A DNA stretch of 64,000 nucleotides from Planctomycetota bacterium. Its GTDB lineage: Bacteria; Planctomycetota; UBA1135; UBA2386. The translations under genes were made by a program, and so were the position numbers. Positions 1 to 35,032 of this stretch are shown here, piece after piece (the stretch's first letter is position 1; each line of letters opens with the position of its first letter). The notes under the pieces are model-generated. The model did no database searches. It saw only the letters and a program-made list of their open reading frames with translations, and was not told the DNA's origin. The stretch is taken from the NCBI GenBank assembly GCA_965223545.1, contig OZ245006.1:7584001-7648000 (forward strand). The letters are read 5' to 3'.

Positions 1-519
1 CAGGCCTCGGTGCTCGATCAGATGGAGGACTCGGTGTTCCGCGTCGCCGACACCATGAACCTCTGGATCGAGAACGACCGCAGTGACTTGATGGCGCTGC
101 TGCCGCGCGTCGACGGCCTGATCGTCAACGACGAGGAGGTCAAGATGCTCACCGAGGAGACCAACTTGATCCGCGCCGGCCGCAAGCTGCTCGAGCTCGG
201 GCCGAAGCTGGCGATCGTCAAGAAGGGCGAGCACGGCGCGTTCTTGTTCTCGAACTTCTTCCAGCAGGCACTGCCCGCGTACCCGACCGATCGGGTCGTC
301 GACCCCACCGGTGCCGGCGACAGCTTCGCCGGCGGCTTCATGGGCTTTCTCGCCGAGTGCGACAGCTTGAGCCTGTGGAACATGAAGCGCGCGATGGCGT
401 TTGGCACGGTGACCGCGAGCTTCACGGTCGAGGGGTTCGGCGTCGATGCGATCGCCGCCGCCGACCGCGCCACCGTCGAGCGGCGCTACGAAGAGCTGAT
501 CCAGTTCGTCAGCATCTGA
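1..519 (+). CDS. PfkB-family carbohydrate kinase (5' part outside window)
   Basis: Open frame from base 1; motifs KKGEHGA and DPTGAGDSFAGGF (PfkB signature). Confidence 0.9.
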   Translation, partial: QASVLDQMEDSVFRVADTMNLWIENDRSDLMALLPRVDGLIVNDEEVKMLTEETNLIRAGRKLLELGPKLAIVKKGEHGAFLFSNFFQQALPAYPTDRVVDPTGAGDSFAGGFMGFLAECDSLSLWNMKRAMAFGTVTASFTVEGFGVDAIAAADRATVERRYEELIQFVSI

Positions 520-27708: not shown

Positions 27709-29937
27709 CTACAGGCCGATCGTCACGCGCAGTCGGTTCGAGCCGGCGATTCCCGGCAGTGATGGGCACGGCGAGCTGCTGCCGCCGAGCGTGATCCACT
27801 GCACGTCGACGCTGGCGCCGAGGGCGTTGTAGAGTGCGCAGGAGATTGGCGACGGAACCTCGGCGCTGCCGCCGACCAGCGGGACGGGGACCGTGATCAG
27901 CTGGATCACGAAGGTGCAGCTGCCGCACGCGTAGGTGAGGTTCGGCAGACCCATGTAGAAGAGCGCGGTGGGCGCGGTTGGGTCGGCGCCGTCGAGTCGG
28001 TAGCGGAAGCTCGGATTGCCGACCGCGACCGGCCCGATCGTACTGGCAGTACCGCCACCCGTGCAGCCACCGCCGAGCGAAACGACCGGGCCACCAGGCC
28101 CGAGTGCCTCGAAACGCTGGGCCTGGAGCGAGGTCGACAGACTCGTGCTGGCGACGCTGGAGAACACCACCAGGGCCTCGTCGCCCTTGCCGCCACCGTG
28201 GAACTCCGAGGCGATCGCGGGGTGCGCGTCGTAGGCGCCGACCGCACTGCCGACCACCGCCTCGTCGCCACAGGCCGCGCACGCCGGGCTGAACGCCCGT
28301 AAACGCAGGTCGTAGTCGAGAAACCCGACTCCTTCGCGAGACCAGGCGATCAGATACTTGGTGCCGAGCCAGGCCACCGCCGGAGTTCGTTCGTCGACCG
28401 TCGGGTTGGCGGCGATCGCCACCGGCGCCGCCGCCAGCAGGCGACTGCCGTTCCAGGACAGCGGCGTGCCGATCACGTCGCCCGACAGAGAGGTCGGTAG
28501 CGACAGCTCGCGGTAGACCAGGACGAAGCTGCGGCCGTCTCCGTCGACCGCGGGGGTCGACGCCAGACCGCTCGTCGTCACCGTCGTGGCTGGTGACAAC
28601 GCGGCGAGGTCGCGGTCGAACAGGCGCGCACCGACATCACCGGCCGACGACCGCCAGGCCACGACAAAGCGCCCGAGAACGCCGCCGGAACGGCTGATGC
28701 ACGCGTCACCGGCGCCCGGGTCGGCGACCAGCAAGCTGTCGCTCAGCACCATCGGCGGCGAGATCACGGTCGGGAAGTTGAGTCGCAGCTGGATCTGCGC
28801 GCCGCGCACGCCTTCACCGGGTCGCGTCCACACCAGCACCACGTCGTCGTCAACCACCGTCACCTCGCTGCCGAGAGCCGGCTCGACGTCCTGCGCGCTC
28901 GCCTGCGTGACCTGCACGATGATCGACCGTTGGCCGTCACCTTCCACGCCCCGCACCCACAGGTCCCAGGGTCCGAACGGGGATGCCGCCTCCTGCCAAA
29001 CGACCGCGAAGCGGCCCGACTGTGCGACGAAGGCGGCGGTGGGCGAAGTCGACAGCGCGGTGTTGTTGGCGTCGATGCGCAGCAGGCCGGTCAGCGGTGC
29101 GCCGCTGGGGTCCACGATCAGGCCGCGAACCTCCGCCGACGTCGCCGCGAGTCGCCGGCTCCAGACGACGAGGTAGCGGCCGGACCGCGCGTTGCACGCA
29201 ATGTCCGGCTCCGTGTCACCGGCTGTCGCGCTGATCGAGAACACGGTCGAGATCAGCGGGTCCAGCTCCAGCGGGAACGCCGCCGCCTCGACCGCGGCGG
29301 CCGGCAGGCGCAGCTCCAGCAGCCCGTCGCGCCACGCCATCGCCATTGGCCAGCGCCGTCCCGTGGCATCGACCGCGACGGCGCGTCCGATGTCGACGCC
29401 CACCCCGGGCCGGGCTCGCAACGCCAGACCGGCGTCGCACCGGCCTGCCGGCGGCGCGGCCAGGGTCGAGCCGACGCGGACCAGGGCCACGAGGTCGCCA
29501 TCCCCCGGGGGCCGGGCTGCCAGCTCGACCGCGTGCTTGAGGCCGTCGCTACGCACTTCGAACGTCTCGGTCACGCGCGCCGTGTGCCGGTAGTGCACGC
29601 GGCGGTCTCCGGCCCGGGCCGGCTTGCTGTCGGAGCCCCAGCTCGCGACCGTCCGCTCGCCGCGGCGCAGCTGCACGAGCCCGACCTCGATGGCGTGCAG
29701 CTCTGCCTCGGCGGGCAACGCCGGCACGAATCTCGCCCCGGACGAGGTGAATTCGACGCTGTAGTCGGGTCCACCTCCGGCAAGGCCCACCTCTTCCGAC
29801 CAGATGCCGCAGGCGTCGGCGATGGCGTCCCGTGCGGCATGCGGCGGCGGCTCGGCGGTGGTGGGCGTGGGTTGTGCGGCCAGGCTCGCCGCCGCGGCGA
29901 GCGAGAGGGCACAGACAAGGAACGTGTCGCGAGTCAT
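27709..29937 (-). CDS. Large secreted hypothetical protein (beta-repeat core, Cys-containing C-terminal domain)
   Basis: Signal peptide ending SLAAQ; repeated P-x-x-A...(Y/F)-L-V-V-W motifs; ATGA overlap with upstream gene. Confidence 0.8.
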   Translation of the reverse strand: MTRDTFLVCALSLAAAASLAAQPTPTTAEPPPHAARDAIADACGIWSEEVGLAGGGPDYSVEFTSSGARFVPALPAEAELHAIEVGLVQLRRGERTVASWGSDSKPARAGDRRVHYRHTARVTETFEVRSDGLKHAVELAARPPGDGDLVALVRVGSTLAAPPAGRCDAGLALRARPGVGVDIGRAVAVDATGRRWPMAMAWRDGLLELRLPAAAVEAAAFPLELDPLISTVFSISATAGDTEPDIACNARSGRYLVVWSRRLAATSAEVRGLIVDPSGAPLTGLLRIDANNTALSTSPTAAFVAQSGRFAVVWQEAASPFGPWDLWVRGVEGDGQRSIIVQVTQASAQDVEPALGSEVTVVDDDVVLVWTRPGEGVRGAQIQLRLNFPTVISPPMVLSDSLLVADPGAGDACISRSGGVLGRFVVAWRSSAGDVGARLFDRDLAALSPATTVTTSGLASTPAVDGDGRSFVLVYRELSLPTSLSGDVIGTPLSWNGSRLLAAAPVAIAANPTVDERTPAVAWLGTKYLIAWSREGVGFLDYDLRLRAFSPACAACGDEAVVGSAVGAYDAHPAIASEFHGGGKGDEALVVFSSVASTSLSTSLQAQRFEALGPGGPVVSLGGGCTGGGTASTIGPVAVGNPSFRYRLDGADPTAPTALFYMGLPNLTYACGSCTFVIQLITVPVPLVGGSAEVPSPISCALYNALGASVDVQWITLGGSSSPCPSLPGIAGSNRLRVTIGL

Positions 29938-31475
29938 TGGATGGTCACCTCCAGCGCGTTGGACAAGTCCGCCCCCAGCGGCGAACACGTGTTGCCGATG
30001 CGCAGCAACGCCCATTGCGTGTAGAACGTCACGCCGCGCAGCGAGGCGAACGGCGGCATCGCGATCGGCACCTCTTTGAAGCTGGTAATGCCGGTCCCCT
30101 TGATCACCGCGATGCCCACCGCCGGGTCTGGTACCAGGACGCAACCGCTGCACGGCGCATCGAGCCGCCGCGGACTCACCAGCAAGACTCCGCGGGTGAA
30201 GATGTCGATGTCGTGTCGCGCGCGGAGGGTGAACGCCGCATGGTCAGCCCGGGCGCACGATGCGAAGGCCTCACCACCCAGACCGCAGCCTCCGCCCAGG
30301 TCGCGCGAGACGCCGTCGGAGACGAACAGCGTGCGGGCCTGAATCGCAGTCGTGTTGTTGTCGCCCTCGGCCCAGACGAACAGTGCCCGGCTGGCGTCAC
30401 CACCGCCGCCATTGGCGGCGGACGACGCGCCGAACACGGTGTCGTTCTGGTCCTGTTCGAGGGCGAATTGGGGCTCGCACAGCTCCACCGTGAAGGGGTC
30501 GGCCGACCGCGCGTACAAGTCTTGTTGGATGGAGAACGGCGGCGAGGACACATCGGCGATCGCAGCCGATCCGCCGAGCCAGCTGGCTGCCTTGGCAAAG
30601 GCGAACGGCGACGACGACAGGCCATTGGCCGTCTGTGCGACCGTACCCGTGCGTGGATCGAAGGTGATCGAGAACGCCGCGGCGCGCGCCGCGACGACCC
30701 AGGTGCGGCCGTCGCCATCGACACTGCCGATGGTGTCGGTCGCGATCGGGAACGGCGATGTCAATGGCGTGAGGTCCATCCCGCACACCATGCCGAACGC
30801 CCCCAGGGTGGTGGTCAGGCGCCGCCACACCACCAGCAGGCGACGGTGTGGCCCGCCGGTGTGCGCCACGCGGACGTCGAGCACGCGTCCGGAGATCGAC
30901 GCCAGCCGCTGCGAAGGGAACGCCGCCAGCGTGCCCGAACGACTGATCACGAGCAGCTTGGCGCGCATGATCGTGGTGCTGGAGCTGAGCTGGTCGGGAT
31001 ACACCGCCACTGCCGCGTCCGGTTGGTCTGCGGCTTCGCCCGCGACGTCGACCAGGTTCGGCGTGATCTGGTTGACGGTGGCGACGCTGACCGTGTTCGA
31101 CAGCGCGCCGTTGGCGAACACCGCCCGCGCCTTGATGATCCCCGGTTGCTCGGTCCAGACGACGACGAAGGCGTCGCGTTCGTTGATGTTGGCGACCACC
31201 GGCTGCACGTAGCCGCTGGTCGCCGCGACCCGAATCGAACCGGCGCCAAAGCCGGTGCCGTCATCGCGCACCAGGCGTGCGTGCACCCCGTCGGCAAACG
31301 ACCAGACCACCAGGTAGCGGTCGGAATCTCGGTCGTATGCGACATCGGGATGGCGCGGCTGGAACGCCGTGCGGCCGAACACGGCGAACTCGGGTCCGGT
31401 CACGGTTTGGGCAGGGGCGGTAGCGGCGACCGGAAGAGACGCGAGGCAGGCCGCGAGCAAGGCTCGATGCGACAT
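29934..31475 (-). CDS. Secreted hypothetical protein, related to the downstream gene
   Basis: AAGGAG RBS, signal peptide ending APAQ, PDVAY...YLVVWS repeats, LGGGC...SNALEVTIQ C-terminus. Confidence 0.8.
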   Translation of the reverse strand: MSHRALLAACLASLPVAATAPAQTVTGPEFAVFGRTAFQPRHPDVAYDRDSDRYLVVWSFADGVHARLVRDDGTGFGAGSIRVAATSGYVQPVVANINERDAFVVVWTEQPGIIKARAVFANGALSNTVSVATVNQITPNLVDVAGEAADQPDAAVAVYPDQLSSSTTIMRAKLLVISRSGTLAAFPSQRLASISGRVLDVRVAHTGGPHRRLLVVWRRLTTTLGAFGMVCGMDLTPLTSPFPIATDTIGSVDGDGRTWVVAARAAAFSITFDPRTGTVAQTANGLSSSPFAFAKAASWLGGSAAIADVSSPPFSIQQDLYARSADPFTVELCEPQFALEQDQNDTVFGASSAANGGGGDASRALFVWAEGDNNTTAIQARTLFVSDGVSRDLGGGCGLGGEAFASCARADHAAFTLRARHDIDIFTRGVLLVSPRRLDAPCSGCVLVPDPAVGIAVIKGTGITSFKEVPIAMPPFASLRGVTFYTQWALLRIGNTCSPLGADLSNALEVTIQ

Positions 31476-31516
31476 GTGGAGAGACTCCTTTGGCAAGGGG
31501 GGGCGTCGAGGCGGCC

Positions 31517-31556
31517 CTGCCAGGGAGAGCGACGGCGGCGGCTCGGGTGTTCGCGG
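31517..31556 (-). promoter_or_regulatory. Candidate ECF promoter upstream of the secreted-protein operon
   Basis: Minus strand CCGCGAAC-N14-CGTCGCTCTCC-N3-GCAG. Confidence 0.6.
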
Positions 31557-31639
31557 TGCGCGCGGGATTTCCGCGGCGACCGGGCCCGACGCCCGCGGGT
31601 CGACGCGGCGAAGTGATGAACGGGAGCCTGACCTGAAAC

Positions 31640-33022
31640 TCACCCAGCCTCGGCGATCGGTATGAGCTTGTACCCGAGGGATTTAGCGTTCTGTCGGAGT
31701 CCGACGATGCGTCGCTGGGTGAAGCGCTCCTCGTAGGCCTTGGCGCCTTCGTCTACGTAGTCCTGGCCGAACTTCAGCATGCGGTAGATGAGCAGGGCCA
31801 GTTTGCGGGCGATGGCAAAGATGGCGACGTTGCCGTCCTTCGCGCGGGCGATCTTGCGGAAGTGTGCGCCGAGAGCTGTCTGAGTACGTTGGAGGGACAG
31901 GGCGGCCATCCGGAGGACCGTGGCGATCCTGCTGACCGCGATGTTGTTGCGGTGCTTCTTGATGCGCTTTCCACCCGAGACGGCTTGACGTGGGCACAGG
32001 CGTAGCCAGGAGACGAAGTGCTTCTCGGTCGGGAAAGCTTCGAGGTCGTAGCCGACCTCGGTGAGCACGATCATGGCCGTGCTCGGGCTGATACCGTCGA
32101 TTCGCGTGAGATCACACCCGACGAGCCGGCAGAGGGCATCGCGAAGCTCCCGGCCGCCCTTCGTTCGGATGCTCCTCTCCTTGCGGGGGTCTGGATGCTC
32201 GGGGACGTCGGCCGTCTTGGCTTCCTCCGGTTGCAGGTCCTCGATCATCGCCATCAATCGCTTCTCGACCGACTCGATCTCGTGGTCGGTGTGCTCGAGC
32301 ATCCGCAAGCCCGAAGCGAGAGTGAAGATGTGCTCCTCGATCCAGGTCCCTTGCAAGTGATCCGCGAGCTCCTTCTCGGAGATCTTGCAGCGCGGATCAC
32401 GCAGTCTGGCGAGCGCTCGAGGGTCGCGTTCACCAGCGAGAATCGCGCGGATGATCGCGAGGCCGGTCTTGCCGGTGATGTCCGTTACCGCGCGATGGAT
32501 CGCCACGTTCATCTGATCCAGTGACCGCTGCATCAACTGCGTGTGGCGCGTGCGCTGCGCGATCAAAGACGCGGCATGGCGTTGCAGGGTCCGCAACGCA
32601 CAGATGTCCTTCGGAGGCCGGAACGAAGCGCGAATGAGGCCATAGGTGTGTAGCTTCTGCAGCCAACTGCAATCGCTGGCATCGGACTTGGAGCGGCCCG
32701 GCACGTTCTTCACCTCGCGGGCATTCGCGAGGATGACCTCGAAGCCTCTCGACTCGAGTAGCTCGTAGACGGGAATCCAGTAGACATAGGTGCTCTCCAT
32801 CGCGACGGATCGCACTCCGAGCTCCTCCAGCCAGTCCGCGAGCGCCTCTAGCTGGGGCGTCGTCGTTCCGAATCGCTTGATCGGACGACTGCCGTCGGGT
32901 GCTGCTGCGCACACCCAGTGCTCGCGGCTGCCGATGTCGATTCCGGCGGCGTTGGGCTTCACGACTGGCAATACTTCCGCTGCGGGCTTCTTGCCCTTCC
33001 TCGTTCTGCTCTTCCCAGCCAT
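31640..33022 (-). CDS. IS110-family transposase (DEDD recombinase)
   Basis: GIDIG, AMESTYVYW, KSDASDC (RuvC-like DEDD); IDGIS...EVG.DL.AFPT.KHFVSWLRLCP...SGGK; AIARKLA. Confidence 0.95.
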   Translation of the reverse strand: MAGKSRTRKGKKPAAEVLPVVKPNAAGIDIGSREHWVCAAAPDGSRPIKRFGTTTPQLEALADWLEELGVRSVAMESTYVYWIPVYELLESRGFEVILANAREVKNVPGRSKSDASDCSWLQKLHTYGLIRASFRPPKDICALRTLQRHAASLIAQRTRHTQLMQRSLDQMNVAIHRAVTDITGKTGLAIIRAILAGERDPRALARLRDPRCKISEKELADHLQGTWIEEHIFTLASGLRMLEHTDHEIESVEKRLMAMIEDLQPEEAKTADVPEHPDPRKERSIRTKGGRELRDALCRLVGCDLTRIDGISPSTAMIVLTEVGYDLEAFPTEKHFVSWLRLCPRQAVSGGKRIKKHRNNIAVSRIATVLRMAALSLQRTQTALGAHFRKIARAKDGNVAIFAIARKLALLIYRMLKFGQDYVDEGAKAYEERFTQRRIVGLRQNAKSLGYKLIPIAEAG

Positions 33023-33044
33023 ACTTCATCCTCATTGTTGTGGT

Positions 33045-33197
33045 GGGCCCGGCCCGAGGCGGCGATCAAACGAATCTGACCTGCGGGAGTGGGCACGGCG
33101 ACGTGCCCCTCACCAGTGAAGGATGGCCAACTCGGACCCAGACTGGCTCTGGGGCAAACGTGCTCCAGTGGCTATTGGGGGCGTAGCTGCCGGGCCC
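33045..33197 (-). ncRNA. Putative IS110 bridge RNA core (ends approximate)
   Basis: Closed by a 9-bp stem GGGCCCGGC/GCCGGGCCC; two CACTGG-hairpin-CCCR-guide-AG modules whose guides match the flank and the right end. Confidence 0.7.
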
Positions 33198-33286
33198 CTC
33201 ACACGTTCCCCTCCCCCTTCCTCAGCGGCTAGTTTCCTGCCCTGAAGGGCCGACAAATCTGCCGGGGCAGGACTGGCTCCGTACGT

Positions 33287-35032
33287 TCAGGTGCCGAGGA
33301 GGGCCAGGGCTGCGGCGGGGCTCATCAGGGGGTGCAGGTGGAGCGCGCGGAGGTCGACCTTGTGCAGGCGGGCGCGCAGCTCCGCGCGCACGGTCTCGGC
33401 TTGGGCGTCGCTGCCCAGTGCGCGCAGGACGCGCGCGAGGGCGGCGCGGGGGAGCGGTGCTTCGGTGCCGACGTAGAGTTGCATGCGCTGGTTGAGCTCG
33501 TCGAGCAGCTCGCCGCGGCGCTGGTGCGCGGCGGCGCGCAGCGCGCCGCGCCAGACCGTGTGGCCGGTGCGCTGCAGGTGGGCTTCGGCGGCGGTCGCCG
33601 GCTGGTCGGTGCGCGCGATTTCACACAGGCCGTTGAGGTAGATCAGCGCGGCGCTGAGCACCGGTGCGCCGTCGTGGAGGGCTTCGAAGGCGGACAGCCG
33701 GACGGCCAAGTCCTCGTGCCGCCCGATCCAGACCAGGACCTCGCCGGCTTCGACCAGCTCCAAGGCGCGCGCGGAAAACTCGGATGGACGCCGGCGCAGC
33801 CACTCGAGGTCGGCGAGCAACGCGTCGGCGGCGCGATCGCCGCGGTCGGTGAGCAGGGCGTGGGCGGCGCGCATGCGGTACAGCTCGTGGCCGCCGGCGC
33901 CGTCGCCGGCGCGCGCCAGCCAGCGGTCGAGCAACCGGTCGAGCTCGTCGTGGCGGCCGGCGGCGTGCAGGGTGAGGGCGGTCGGCACCAGCGACAGATG
34001 CGGCGGGACGGTGCGCGCGGCGTCGCGGGCGGCGTCGACCGCCGCCTCTGCGTCGCCGGCGCAGAGCTCGGCGAAGGCCGCGTGGTAGGCGATCTCCGCG
34101 CTGCGCGGCCAGCGTGCGCGGAGCGTGCGCAGGGCGGGAAGAGACTCTTCGTAGCGTTGCAGCAGGTTGAGCGCGATCGCGCGCGTGCGCATCACGTGTG
34201 GGTCGTGCGGCCGCTCGCGGCTGGCGACGGTACCGAGGGTCAGCAGCTCCTCGTCGGCGGCGCGCGGATCGCCGGTGCGCGATGCGGCGACCAGGGCGGT
34301 GTGCGCCAAGCGGTGGCGGGTGGTGGGCGCGGTGCGGGAGGCGAGCTGTAGCGCCTGGGTCGCGCCGCGGCGCGCCTCTTCGACCGCCGCGCTGTCACCG
34401 CGCTCGCTGCCGCGCGCCAACAGGGCCTGCGCCAGCAGCGCCAGGGTGATGGTGCAGCCCGGGTCGAGCGTGCGCGCGCGGCGCAGGCGTTGGATGGCCG
34501 CCTCGGTGCGGCCGGCGGCGAGCTGACGCCAGCCGTCCTCGGTCTGTCGCACACAGTGGGCGTTGGCGCTGTAGATCGCCGCGCTCGCCAGCGGCAGCGC
34601 GCGCACCTCCTCGCCCAGCGCCTGGCGCGTGGCCAGCGCCAGCGCGTCGATCGCGACCGGGTCGTCGCCCCGCACGCCGGCGAGCGGTAGCGGAGGCTGA
34701 CCGGGGCGCCGCAGCGTCGAGCTCAGCGCCGGCGCCCGTGGGTCGCAGAACAGCTCGATCGTGTGTTCTGCCGCCTCGAGATCTTCGACCCCGCTGGCGA
34801 CGTCGAACCGGGGGCTCTGGCGCAGTGCTTCTCGCCAGAGCCCGTCGAAGAACGCCGCGGGCACCTCGGCTGTGGCCTCCACCGGCGCAAGCCGGAGCAG
34901 GGTACCGGCCGCCAGCGCGATCTGCTGCGGTGCCGGCGCTGGCATCGGCCGTTCGGGAGTCGATGCGGGGCCCGAGCAACCGGCGACGGCCAGCGGCACC
35001 AGGGCGAACGGAGCGCGAAGGACGAATTGCAA
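33287..35032 (-). CDS. TPR-like lipoprotein, hypothetical
   Basis: Lipobox-like LAVAGC; helical repeats. Confidence 0.7.
   Translation of the reverse strand: MQFVLRAPFALVPLAVAGCSGPASTPERPMPAPAPQQIALAAGTLLRLAPVEATAEVPAAFFDGLWREALRQSPRFDVASGVEDLEAAEHTIELFCDPRAPALSSTLRRPGQPPLPLAGVRGDDPVAIDALALATRQALGEEVRALPLASAAIYSANAHCVRQTEDGWRQLAAGRTEAAIQRLRRARTLDPGCTITLALLAQALLARGSERGDSAAVEEARRGATQALQLASRTAPTTRHRLAHTALVAASRTGDPRAADEELLTLGTVASRERPHDPHVMRTRAIALNLLQRYEESLPALRTLRARWPRSAEIAYHAAFAELCAGDAEAAVDAARDAARTVPPHLSLVPTALTLHAAGRHDELDRLLDRWLARAGDGAGGHELYRMRAAHALLTDRGDRAADALLADLEWLRRRPSEFSARALELVEAGEVLVWIGRHEDLAVRLSAFEALHDGAPVLSAALIYLNGLCEIARTDQPATAAEAHLQRTGHTVWRGALRAAAHQRRGELLDELNQRMQLYVGTEAPLPRAALARVLRALGSDAQAETVRAELRARLHKVDLRALHLHPLMSPAAALALLGT

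Follow-up and report, generated by a model that had tools for sequence, protein, structure and literature searches.

Background

The closest described system is the bridge RNA and recombinase of the IS110-family element IS621 (Durrant 2024, PMC11208160; Hiraizumi 2024, PMC11208158; PDB 8wt6-8wt9), in which the CT-core strand, equivalent to the antisense strand of the element described here, is termed 'top' and is cut first (Hiraizumi 2024, PMC11208158). CazIS110-1 and IS621 are reported to form a single-stranded circle of the exchanged strand, with top-strand insertion dominating (bioRxiv 10.1101/2025.10.25.684509; 10.64898/2026.08.31.748434), and current preprints call the choice between a single- and a double-stranded circle in IS110 elements open (bioRxiv 10.64898/2026.08.31.748434). 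The Evo-PIN preprint covers 32,190 bridge RNA loci; its available text describes donors rebuilt from 25 nt on each side, with runs kept within 10 nt of the core and two donor guides required on opposite strands.

The element, its copies and its target

An IS110-family element occupies positions 31628..33272 (minus strand; 1645 bp counting one AG core) of the window, that is, of the whole 64,000-nucleotide stretch of DNA that was analysed. Its extent was established by blastn and tblastn searches of its own genome and by comparison of flanks. The genome encodes 23 full copies that are more than 99% identical, along with one truncated piece. The same left end follows directly after GAGCCAG in all 23 full copies, each with half of a REP to its left, and in 22 of the 23 the right side runs into the other arm of the same palindrome, of which 89 empty copies are found elsewhere in the genome. 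On these grounds the GAGCCAG flank is host DNA; a reading of it as part of the element is ruled out by the copy comparison and the empty repeats. In the window, the left half of the host palindrome (33273..33289, minus strand) ends in the AG core, and the right half (31613..31627, minus strand) was placed by flank comparison and the empty repeats. The REP is entered at its loop, in one polarity. A Y1-transposase (RAYT-like) gene of family PF01797 sits between two element copies, each in a palindromic repeat, and this arrangement, together with the palindrome shared by the copies and the 89 empty repeats, points to a dispersed short palindrome of the REP type as the target. A structure gate at the REP target was considered, and the data do not call for one (23 of 112 REP sites are occupied versus 0 of 15 other 10-nt matches, p 0.07).

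The element has the precise ends, short shared core and site-specific insertion of the IS110 family in the broad sense, lacks terminal inverted repeats, and carries noncoding stretches of 250 nt upstream and 12 nt downstream of its recombinase gene. Homologs have an AG core in 50 of 59 clusters and an AA core in the other 9. No ends-joined circle junction was found over 31450-33450 in the contigs of four sequencing runs, in which rare forms are dropped, and viral contigs gave no match.

A tandem element pair with a 172-bp host duplication between its members is located at about 4826230-4829690 of G000:C1 (L001, L233); the right end of the first copy is joined to a site sharing little beyond the AG core, which is what a one-ended or half-match event would leave. 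A 129-bp remnant (G000:C1:988112-988240), in which the start of the coding region is fused to the right end, has no left end and lies outside a REP. At about 3914530-3915520 of G000:C1 (L165), a RAYT-like gene has an element copy in a repeat on both sides, potentially forming a composite unit with them; the genome also encodes 12 weaker PF01797 matches of similar length and one other strong match. Two long open frames neighbouring the element in the window (29934-31643 and 27709-30153, both minus strand) share a C-terminal motif recognized by eye, and the former, from the ATG at 31475, has no Pfam or NCBIfam match.

Recombinase

The recombinase (31640..33022, minus strand, 460 aa) combines PF01548 and PF02371, with D29, E76, D114, D117 and S349-G350, and scores 248 bits against NF033542 (cut-off 140). 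D29, E76, D114, D117 and S/T349 are kept across 86 aligned homologs, as expected of a DEDD RuvC-like domain and a Tnp domain with a catalytic serine. A structure model of the protein (pLDDT 90.9) is closest to IS621 and ISCro4, the best match being IS621 (TM 0.76 by target), with weak matches to TasR and Nop proteins. The protein is longer than that of IS621 and has a conserved C-terminal helix at about residues 420-455. Several positions of this helix (window about 31655-31765, minus strand) are basic, and in the model it is a candidate for gripping the donor hairpin or repeats described below. The nearest named protein seen is that of ISArsp3 (30% identity), the leader of which did not parse; the searches gave no ISfinder name for the clade, and four 12-nt motifs were without a match in the searchable Durrant supplements. 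Family members with 43% identity are present on many Citrobacter, Enterobacter and Klebsiella plasmids in a plasmid collection.

Predicted bridge RNA

Homologs were collected as 234 loci, of which 224 had a match, 177 were full length and 166 remained after removal of the genome's own copies; 138 of these matched an iterated RNA profile and 135 passed four anchor checks, forming 88 clusters at 90% protein identity. The left end was placed, by means of the 3' target guide, in 73 clusters and the right end in 81; 71 of the 73 have the repeat motif (L031 and L066 were dropped). The ends were assigned by an automatic procedure that may have misplaced a few of them, and no placement of any kind relied on the 5' donor guide. 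Most distant Bacteroidota loci failed the anchors and were inspected by eye only.

The predicted bridge RNA (33045..33197, minus strand) consists of a closing stem (33189-33197 with 33045-33053) around a target branch and a donor branch. The leader region folds with a z of -3.92, none of 200 shuffles being as stable. In 40 close homologs the closing stem likewise holds the two branches, and the 37 proposed pairs give 92.1% paired cells, 23 of the pairs showing changes on both sides. Neither the paired-cell value nor the double-change count was reached in any of 500 shuffles; shuffles can be exceeded through relatedness by itself, but the values of slid controls were far lower too. The pair at columns 92-176 failed, and three adjoining pairs are conserved without compensation. 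Prediction and covariation agree on a two-loop structured RNA in the noncoding end of the element. RNA model R1 matches 33033-33213 in the window and exactly 23 places in the genome, every one an element and none a solo RNA copy (150 of 2377 candidates scored); the 23 copies show no differences in the stretch that the two arms of the closing stem enclose.

The CACTGG modules noted in the original prediction are present, although in homologs CA(C/T)TGG is a constant box and not a guide, as is CCC(C/G), the two resembling the UG and CCA boxes known from Nop-fold guides (Faure 2025, PMC12045711); both CACTGG and GGAGC were rejected as guides because of their constancy. A scan of 31000-34000 against Rfam returned two chance-level matches, none at gathering score, and a Sigma-70 scan of 32950-33400 returned neither promoter nor terminator; -10-like hexamers lie at variable positions between the repeat and the RNA in homologs, as judged by eye.

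The leader was originally predicted to encode a bridge RNA of a long (460 aa) IS110 subtype, and this is borne out by the protein family, the IS621-like fold, the RNA covariation and the tracking of flanks and ends by guides: it very probably encodes an RNA of the bridge type.

Guides for the target and the right end

The long 3' guide of the target loop (GAGCCAG, 33143..33149, minus strand) is identical to the left host flank plus core at 33273-33279 and is equivalent to the right target guide of IS621, in the register R5-CC-HH of the IS621 template in the supplement of Durrant 2024. This identity had been noted over seven letters; the match runs to 9 nt, the two further letters, TC, at the handshake position (33141..33142, minus strand) being the first two of the element (+1,+2). 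The guide is found exactly upstream of the element in 51 of 71 homolog clusters (permuted 1.9). Handshake position 1 equals the first base of the element in 53 of 59 clusters versus 30.8 permuted; position 2 does so weakly (20/59 versus 14.0), and the corresponding positions of the donor loop give no clear signal (20/71 and 25/71 versus 17.9 and 17.2).

The short 5' guide of the target loop (AGCC, 33170..33173, minus strand) complements the core G together with bases +1..+3 of the right flank, giving four pairs at 22 of the 23 sites in this genome. In homologs, positions +1..+4 are complementary in 32, 33, 34 and 32 of 71 clusters, compared with about 17 permuted. The target loop has two guides that track the flanks on opposite strands around the core, the 5' guide being short and complementary in fewer than half of the clusters at each position; a top-strand match comes first and a bottom-strand match second. 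No distant same-strand site for the 5' target guide was detected within 30 nt (z 0.3 and -0.4).

The 3' guide of the donor loop (CAGGTCAG, 33076..33083, minus strand) is identical to the right end of the element plus core at 31628-31635 and has its match near the stop codon in 74 of 84 clusters (permuted 8.4). The covariation between guides and flanks across homologs that had been proposed as a check is seen in the 51 exact matches of the target guide, and the 74 matches of the donor guide track the right end likewise. The layout of five bases, two of core and two of handshake identifies the AG core with a CT core on the antisense strand, and the long 3' guides fit the right guides of IS621 if the site is read on the other strand.

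In seven of 69 clusters (left flanks of L113, L179, L091, L012, L119, L205 and L138; eight were flagged, and L207 looks like a chance match), the letters of the target guide are those of a related element's right end instead of its own, and at L243:2075-2340 a second family member lies at the right end of a first. The AA-core subclade (L135, L139, L002, L128, L207, L145; L236-L239, L241, L242, L245) targets a run of A6 within apparent frameshift sites of other insertion sequences.

The 5' donor guide and its internal site

The 5' guide of the donor loop (ATCCTTC, 33118..33124, minus strand) matches, in the same sense, an internal site of the left end and not the bases adjacent to the core. This internal donor site (site B; 33244..33250, minus strand, left end +23..+29) was read from the sequence and from covariation in the family. 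In this element it is identical to the guide at five of seven positions, and a sixth would form a U-G wobble with the antisense strand. Over 71 clusters, the best same-strand match of the guide 7-mer within left end +9..+45 scores 5.70 versus 4.36 +- 0.09 permuted (z 15.6, 0 of 2000 permutations as high), while the same test in reverse-complement and IS621-like registers gives z 1.4-1.6 and with the 5' target guide as a control z 0.3. The signal is found both in the close clade (n 34, z 11.6) and in the distant set (n 37, z 10.8), and in 35 disjoint nearest pairs with different guides each guide's own site was the better match in 30, tied in 5 and worse in none. With the gap to the repeat fixed at 6 nt, seven adjacent positions exceed the background, unlike those on either side. 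The guide matches at 7/7 positions in 22 clusters, at six in 18, at five in 17 and at four or fewer in 14; mismatches favour wobble with the antisense strand (23 versus 9, p 0.02). In 69 of 71 clusters the site begins 20-31 nt in from the left end, and its gap to the repeat has a mode of 6 nt (43 of 71). In a held-out set of plasmid elements (11 parsed of 14 fetched), the summed match is 48 versus 30.0 +- 2.8, a set in which seven of the 11 belong to one subclade with nearly the same guide, matching at only four of seven positions, and three of 14 were unparsed.

With its 7 nt and a final C followed by A, the 5' donor guide agrees in length and end with the left donor guide of the IS621 template. 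A canonical core-adjacent 5' donor guide was rejected, its three registers giving z -0.7 to 2.1 overall and no signal within either clade. Instead of two opposite-strand guides both adjacent to the core, the donor loop has a 3' guide that is core-adjacent and a 5' guide that matches a distant site on the same strand.

The original prediction was exact in all its coordinates (GAGCCAG 33143-33149/33273-33279; CAGGTCAG 33076-33083/31628-31635; stem 33189-33197/33045-33053) and right in placing one long guide on each loop's 3' side, but it lacked the second, 5' guide that each loop has, the REP target and the opposite-strand reading of the long guides. Its suggestion that the layout may differ from that of IS621 has been confirmed, in that the 5' donor guide matches an internal site and the long guides are IS621 right guides on the opposite strand.

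Predicted folding of the donor ends

Site B lies between an inner DNA hairpin (33250..33265, minus strand; left end +8..+23, 6-bp stem) and the left copy of an inverted repeat of the right end. The single non-Watson-Crick pair of the hairpin is a full pair in six of the 23 copies. The left subterminal repeat (GAAACT, 33231..33236, minus strand) is the exact inverse of the right one (AGTTTC, 31635..31640, minus strand), which overlaps the stop codon and is 7 nt from the element end. Across the family, GTTTC is located seven bases from the right end and its inverse 32-46 nt inside the left end in 65 of 66 clusters; the two are exact inverses in 61 of 66 versus 39.5 permuted, with four compensated variants (GTTCC/GGAAC, GTTAC/GTAAC, GTTGC/GCAAC and GTTAG/CTAAC). 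Three positions flanking the repeats covary too, making eight covarying positions in the family compared with a 6-bp repeat here.

The hairpin is centred within 1 nt of the midpoint between the repeats in 41 of 69 clusters versus 21.7 permuted (two clusters were dropped for a weak stem), and its z is below -1.5 in 41 of 66. The predicted unpaired fraction is 0.10 for the repeats, as against 0.54 and 0.64 for the guide sites, and the arms between hairpin and repeats do not pair with each other. The 6-nt gap is as long as one core base and the 5 nt of the right end together, so that the last C of the site would stand opposite the core C in the folded form. Wobble counts in the DNA stems point both ways as to strand.

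In this element, a competing pairing between left end +1..8 and +31..38 prevails in the fold prediction and uses up part of the left repeat. It is a perfect inverse (33235-33242 with 33265-33272) seen in this element only, by which the left repeat could be masked as long as the element is linear. A conserved pairing of left end +1..7 with the spacer was considered and is not kept in the family.

Proposed reading of the donor

These features suggest, with a probability of roughly 0.6, that the donor loop reads the element ends on one folded antisense strand and not on duplex DNA. The leader would encode the bridge RNA of an active IS110 element, in which the antisense strand carries the CT core and, judging from the guide register, would be the strand cut and exchanged, so that, with respect to the gene, the recombination site would have the opposite reading direction to that of IS621. 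The target loop would read ordinary duplex DNA with its 7-nt guide on one strand and its 4-nt guide on the other, in this genome picking the loop of the REP palindrome in one polarity. Both donor guides would have the antisense strand as their partner, the 3' guide at the right end and the 5' guide at the site 23-30 nt inside the left end. This strand would fold back at the inner hairpin and be closed by the two inverted repeats once the ends join. Internal site and cut site would then face each other in an unpaired loop measuring about 14 by 13 nt, which would mimic a melted duplex. In the most likely cycle, copying out would release the antisense strand as a single-stranded circle, or the strand would be extruded as a cruciform arm; the donor loop would bind it once folded, a single strand exchange would join it to the target, and replication would resolve the exchange. 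Integron attC sites likewise undergo a single exchange that is resolved by replication, and in box C/D systems the two guides can read a single folded strand of RNA. Computation shows the copies and ends of the element, its target, the fold of the RNA, the correspondence of four guides with DNA, the covariation of the repeats and the position of the hairpin. Expression of the RNA, its pairing with DNA at site B, the fold in the complex, the moving strand and the restriction to a single exchange are all parts of the cycle that we infer.

Several observations count against such a fold-back donor: the hairpin calls are off-centre in 28 of 69 clusters; the folding energy of the antisense strand is lower in 24 of 66 and that of the sense strand in 40 of 66 (p 0.17); rejoined empty sites have been detected for IS621 (Hiraizumi 2026); and CazIS110-1 prefers duplex donors about 20-fold at one junction (bioRxiv 10.1101/2025.10.25.684509). 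The competing pairing predicted in this element, the wobble counts in the stems, the weak guide matches in 14 of 71 clusters and in the held-out subclade, and the unclear handshake signal of the donor loop count against it as well.

The internal site may instead be an accessory anchor, paired at another step, either to hold the left end at excision or to loop a duplex; cutting would then need the right-end guide only, as a half-match, and the repeats would be protein-binding sites on duplex DNA. This explains the covariation and the wobble bias equally well, and it agrees with the often imperfect matches between guide and site, with the copy whose right end is joined to a site sharing little beyond the AG core, and with the partial-guide reactions reported for IS621. 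It predicts neither a hairpin midway between the repeats nor the 6-nt gap that sets the site opposite the core; the accessory anchor is considered the less likely of the two, though the most serious competitor. That the partner of the guide is itself an RNA, namely an antisense transcript over the left end or the circle junction that pairs with the donor loop in regulation, is improbable: it would likewise account for the covariation and the wobble bias, the hairpin might form in RNA, and the strand tests of the hairpin favour neither strand clearly, but the donor loop would be left with one DNA guide, the pairing of the repeats needs the right end, which is 1.6 kb away until the ends join, and the leader offers no sense-strand partner for the guide (a candidate rejected at z at most 0.6 in three segments). 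An identity of guide and site as a by-product of shared ancestry, of local duplication or of a shared protein or promoter motif, which might be imagined from the relatedness of the clusters and the common consensus at both places in the close clade, is very improbable given 48 different guide 7-mers among 71 clusters, the 30 to 0 outcome of the nearest pairs, the sharp end of the signal on both sides of the guide and a match kept from about 37% to 100% protein identity.

Implications of the proposed fold-back donor

If the fold-back donor is extended to the whole clade, a large IS110 clade (at least thousands of protein clusters) would be RNA-guided integrases of single-stranded DNA, with an attC-like donor of which both arms are read by guides on one strand, with one exchange only, and with a short folded oligonucleotide end sufficing to make any single-stranded circle a donor; we put this broader proposal at slightly below even odds. 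The sequence of the clade appears to encode an answer to the question of single- versus double-stranded circles. Only one of 71 clusters has its internal site entirely inside the first 23 nt, and the windows and opposite-strand rule given in the available text of Evo-PIN would exclude the present donor layout by design. Orthologs of the clade would appear inactive in a screen that uses minimal duplex donors. If true, the fold-back donor would provide a programmable recombinase for single-stranded donors.

Comparison with known systems

In the literature searched, from which figures, bioRxiv supplements and most subscription papers were outside the scope, neither a distant same-strand donor guide nor a folded donor was found; as far as searched, the bridge RNA is a further member of a known system with an undescribed donor read-out.

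Similar to IS621, the element encodes a DEDD and serine recombinase of the same fold and an RNA located upstream, with a target loop followed by a donor loop, a CT core, a 3' guide composed of five bases followed by two of core and two of handshake, and a 5' donor guide ending at the first core C (Durrant 2024, PMC11208160; Hiraizumi 2024, PMC11208158); REP targeting is shared as well (bioRxiv 10.64898/2026.03.19.712850). Unlike that of IS621, the 5' donor guide matches an internal same-strand site and not the opposite strand beside the core. In having the top-strand match first in the target loop, the element resembles ISEc11, ISKpn4 and ISPa11 of the IS1111 group (Siddiquee 2024, PMC11187229), with which it also shares subterminal inverted repeats and some members of which target REPs or attC sites (PMC11187229). 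IS1111 elements have a downstream RNA and a protein of 330-350 aa, in contrast to the upstream RNA and 460 aa here, and their repeats usually span 11-13 bp and leave 7 and 3 bp beyond them (PMC11187229), whereas those described here measure 6-8 bp, the sequence outside them being 7 nt at the right end and mostly 33-39 nt at the left. The element thus has neither the repeat geometry nor the RNA position and protein length of the IS1111 group; it has the upstream noncoding region of the IS110 group in the sense of Siddiquee, but the reverse of its bottom-before-top guide order, so that the order of IS1111 is found in an element with an upstream RNA.

The cycle proposed here is the copy-out cycle of CazIS110-1 and IS621, of which the donor guides bind two strands beside the core, no folded donor being described in the available text of those reports (bioRxiv 10.1101/2025.10.25.684509; 10.64898/2026.08.31.748434). 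ISPpu10 also combines a DNA stem-loop in recognition with a REP target (bioRxiv 10.64898/2026.03.19.712850), but there the stem-loop belongs to the target and no guide reads it, whereas the one proposed here is in the donor and would reposition a guide site. The tigRNAs of TIGR systems (Faure 2025, PMC12045711) likewise have tandem guides framed by UG and CCA-like boxes and a Nop-fold dimer; their spacers read opposite DNA strands (PMC12045711), whereas both donor guides here would read the same strand. Integron attC provides a recombination site formed when one specific strand folds (Larouche and Roy 2011, PMC3053210), which is read by protein, a tyrosine integrase, without RNA. By analogy, the system would work like IS621 at its target and like integron attC at its donor.
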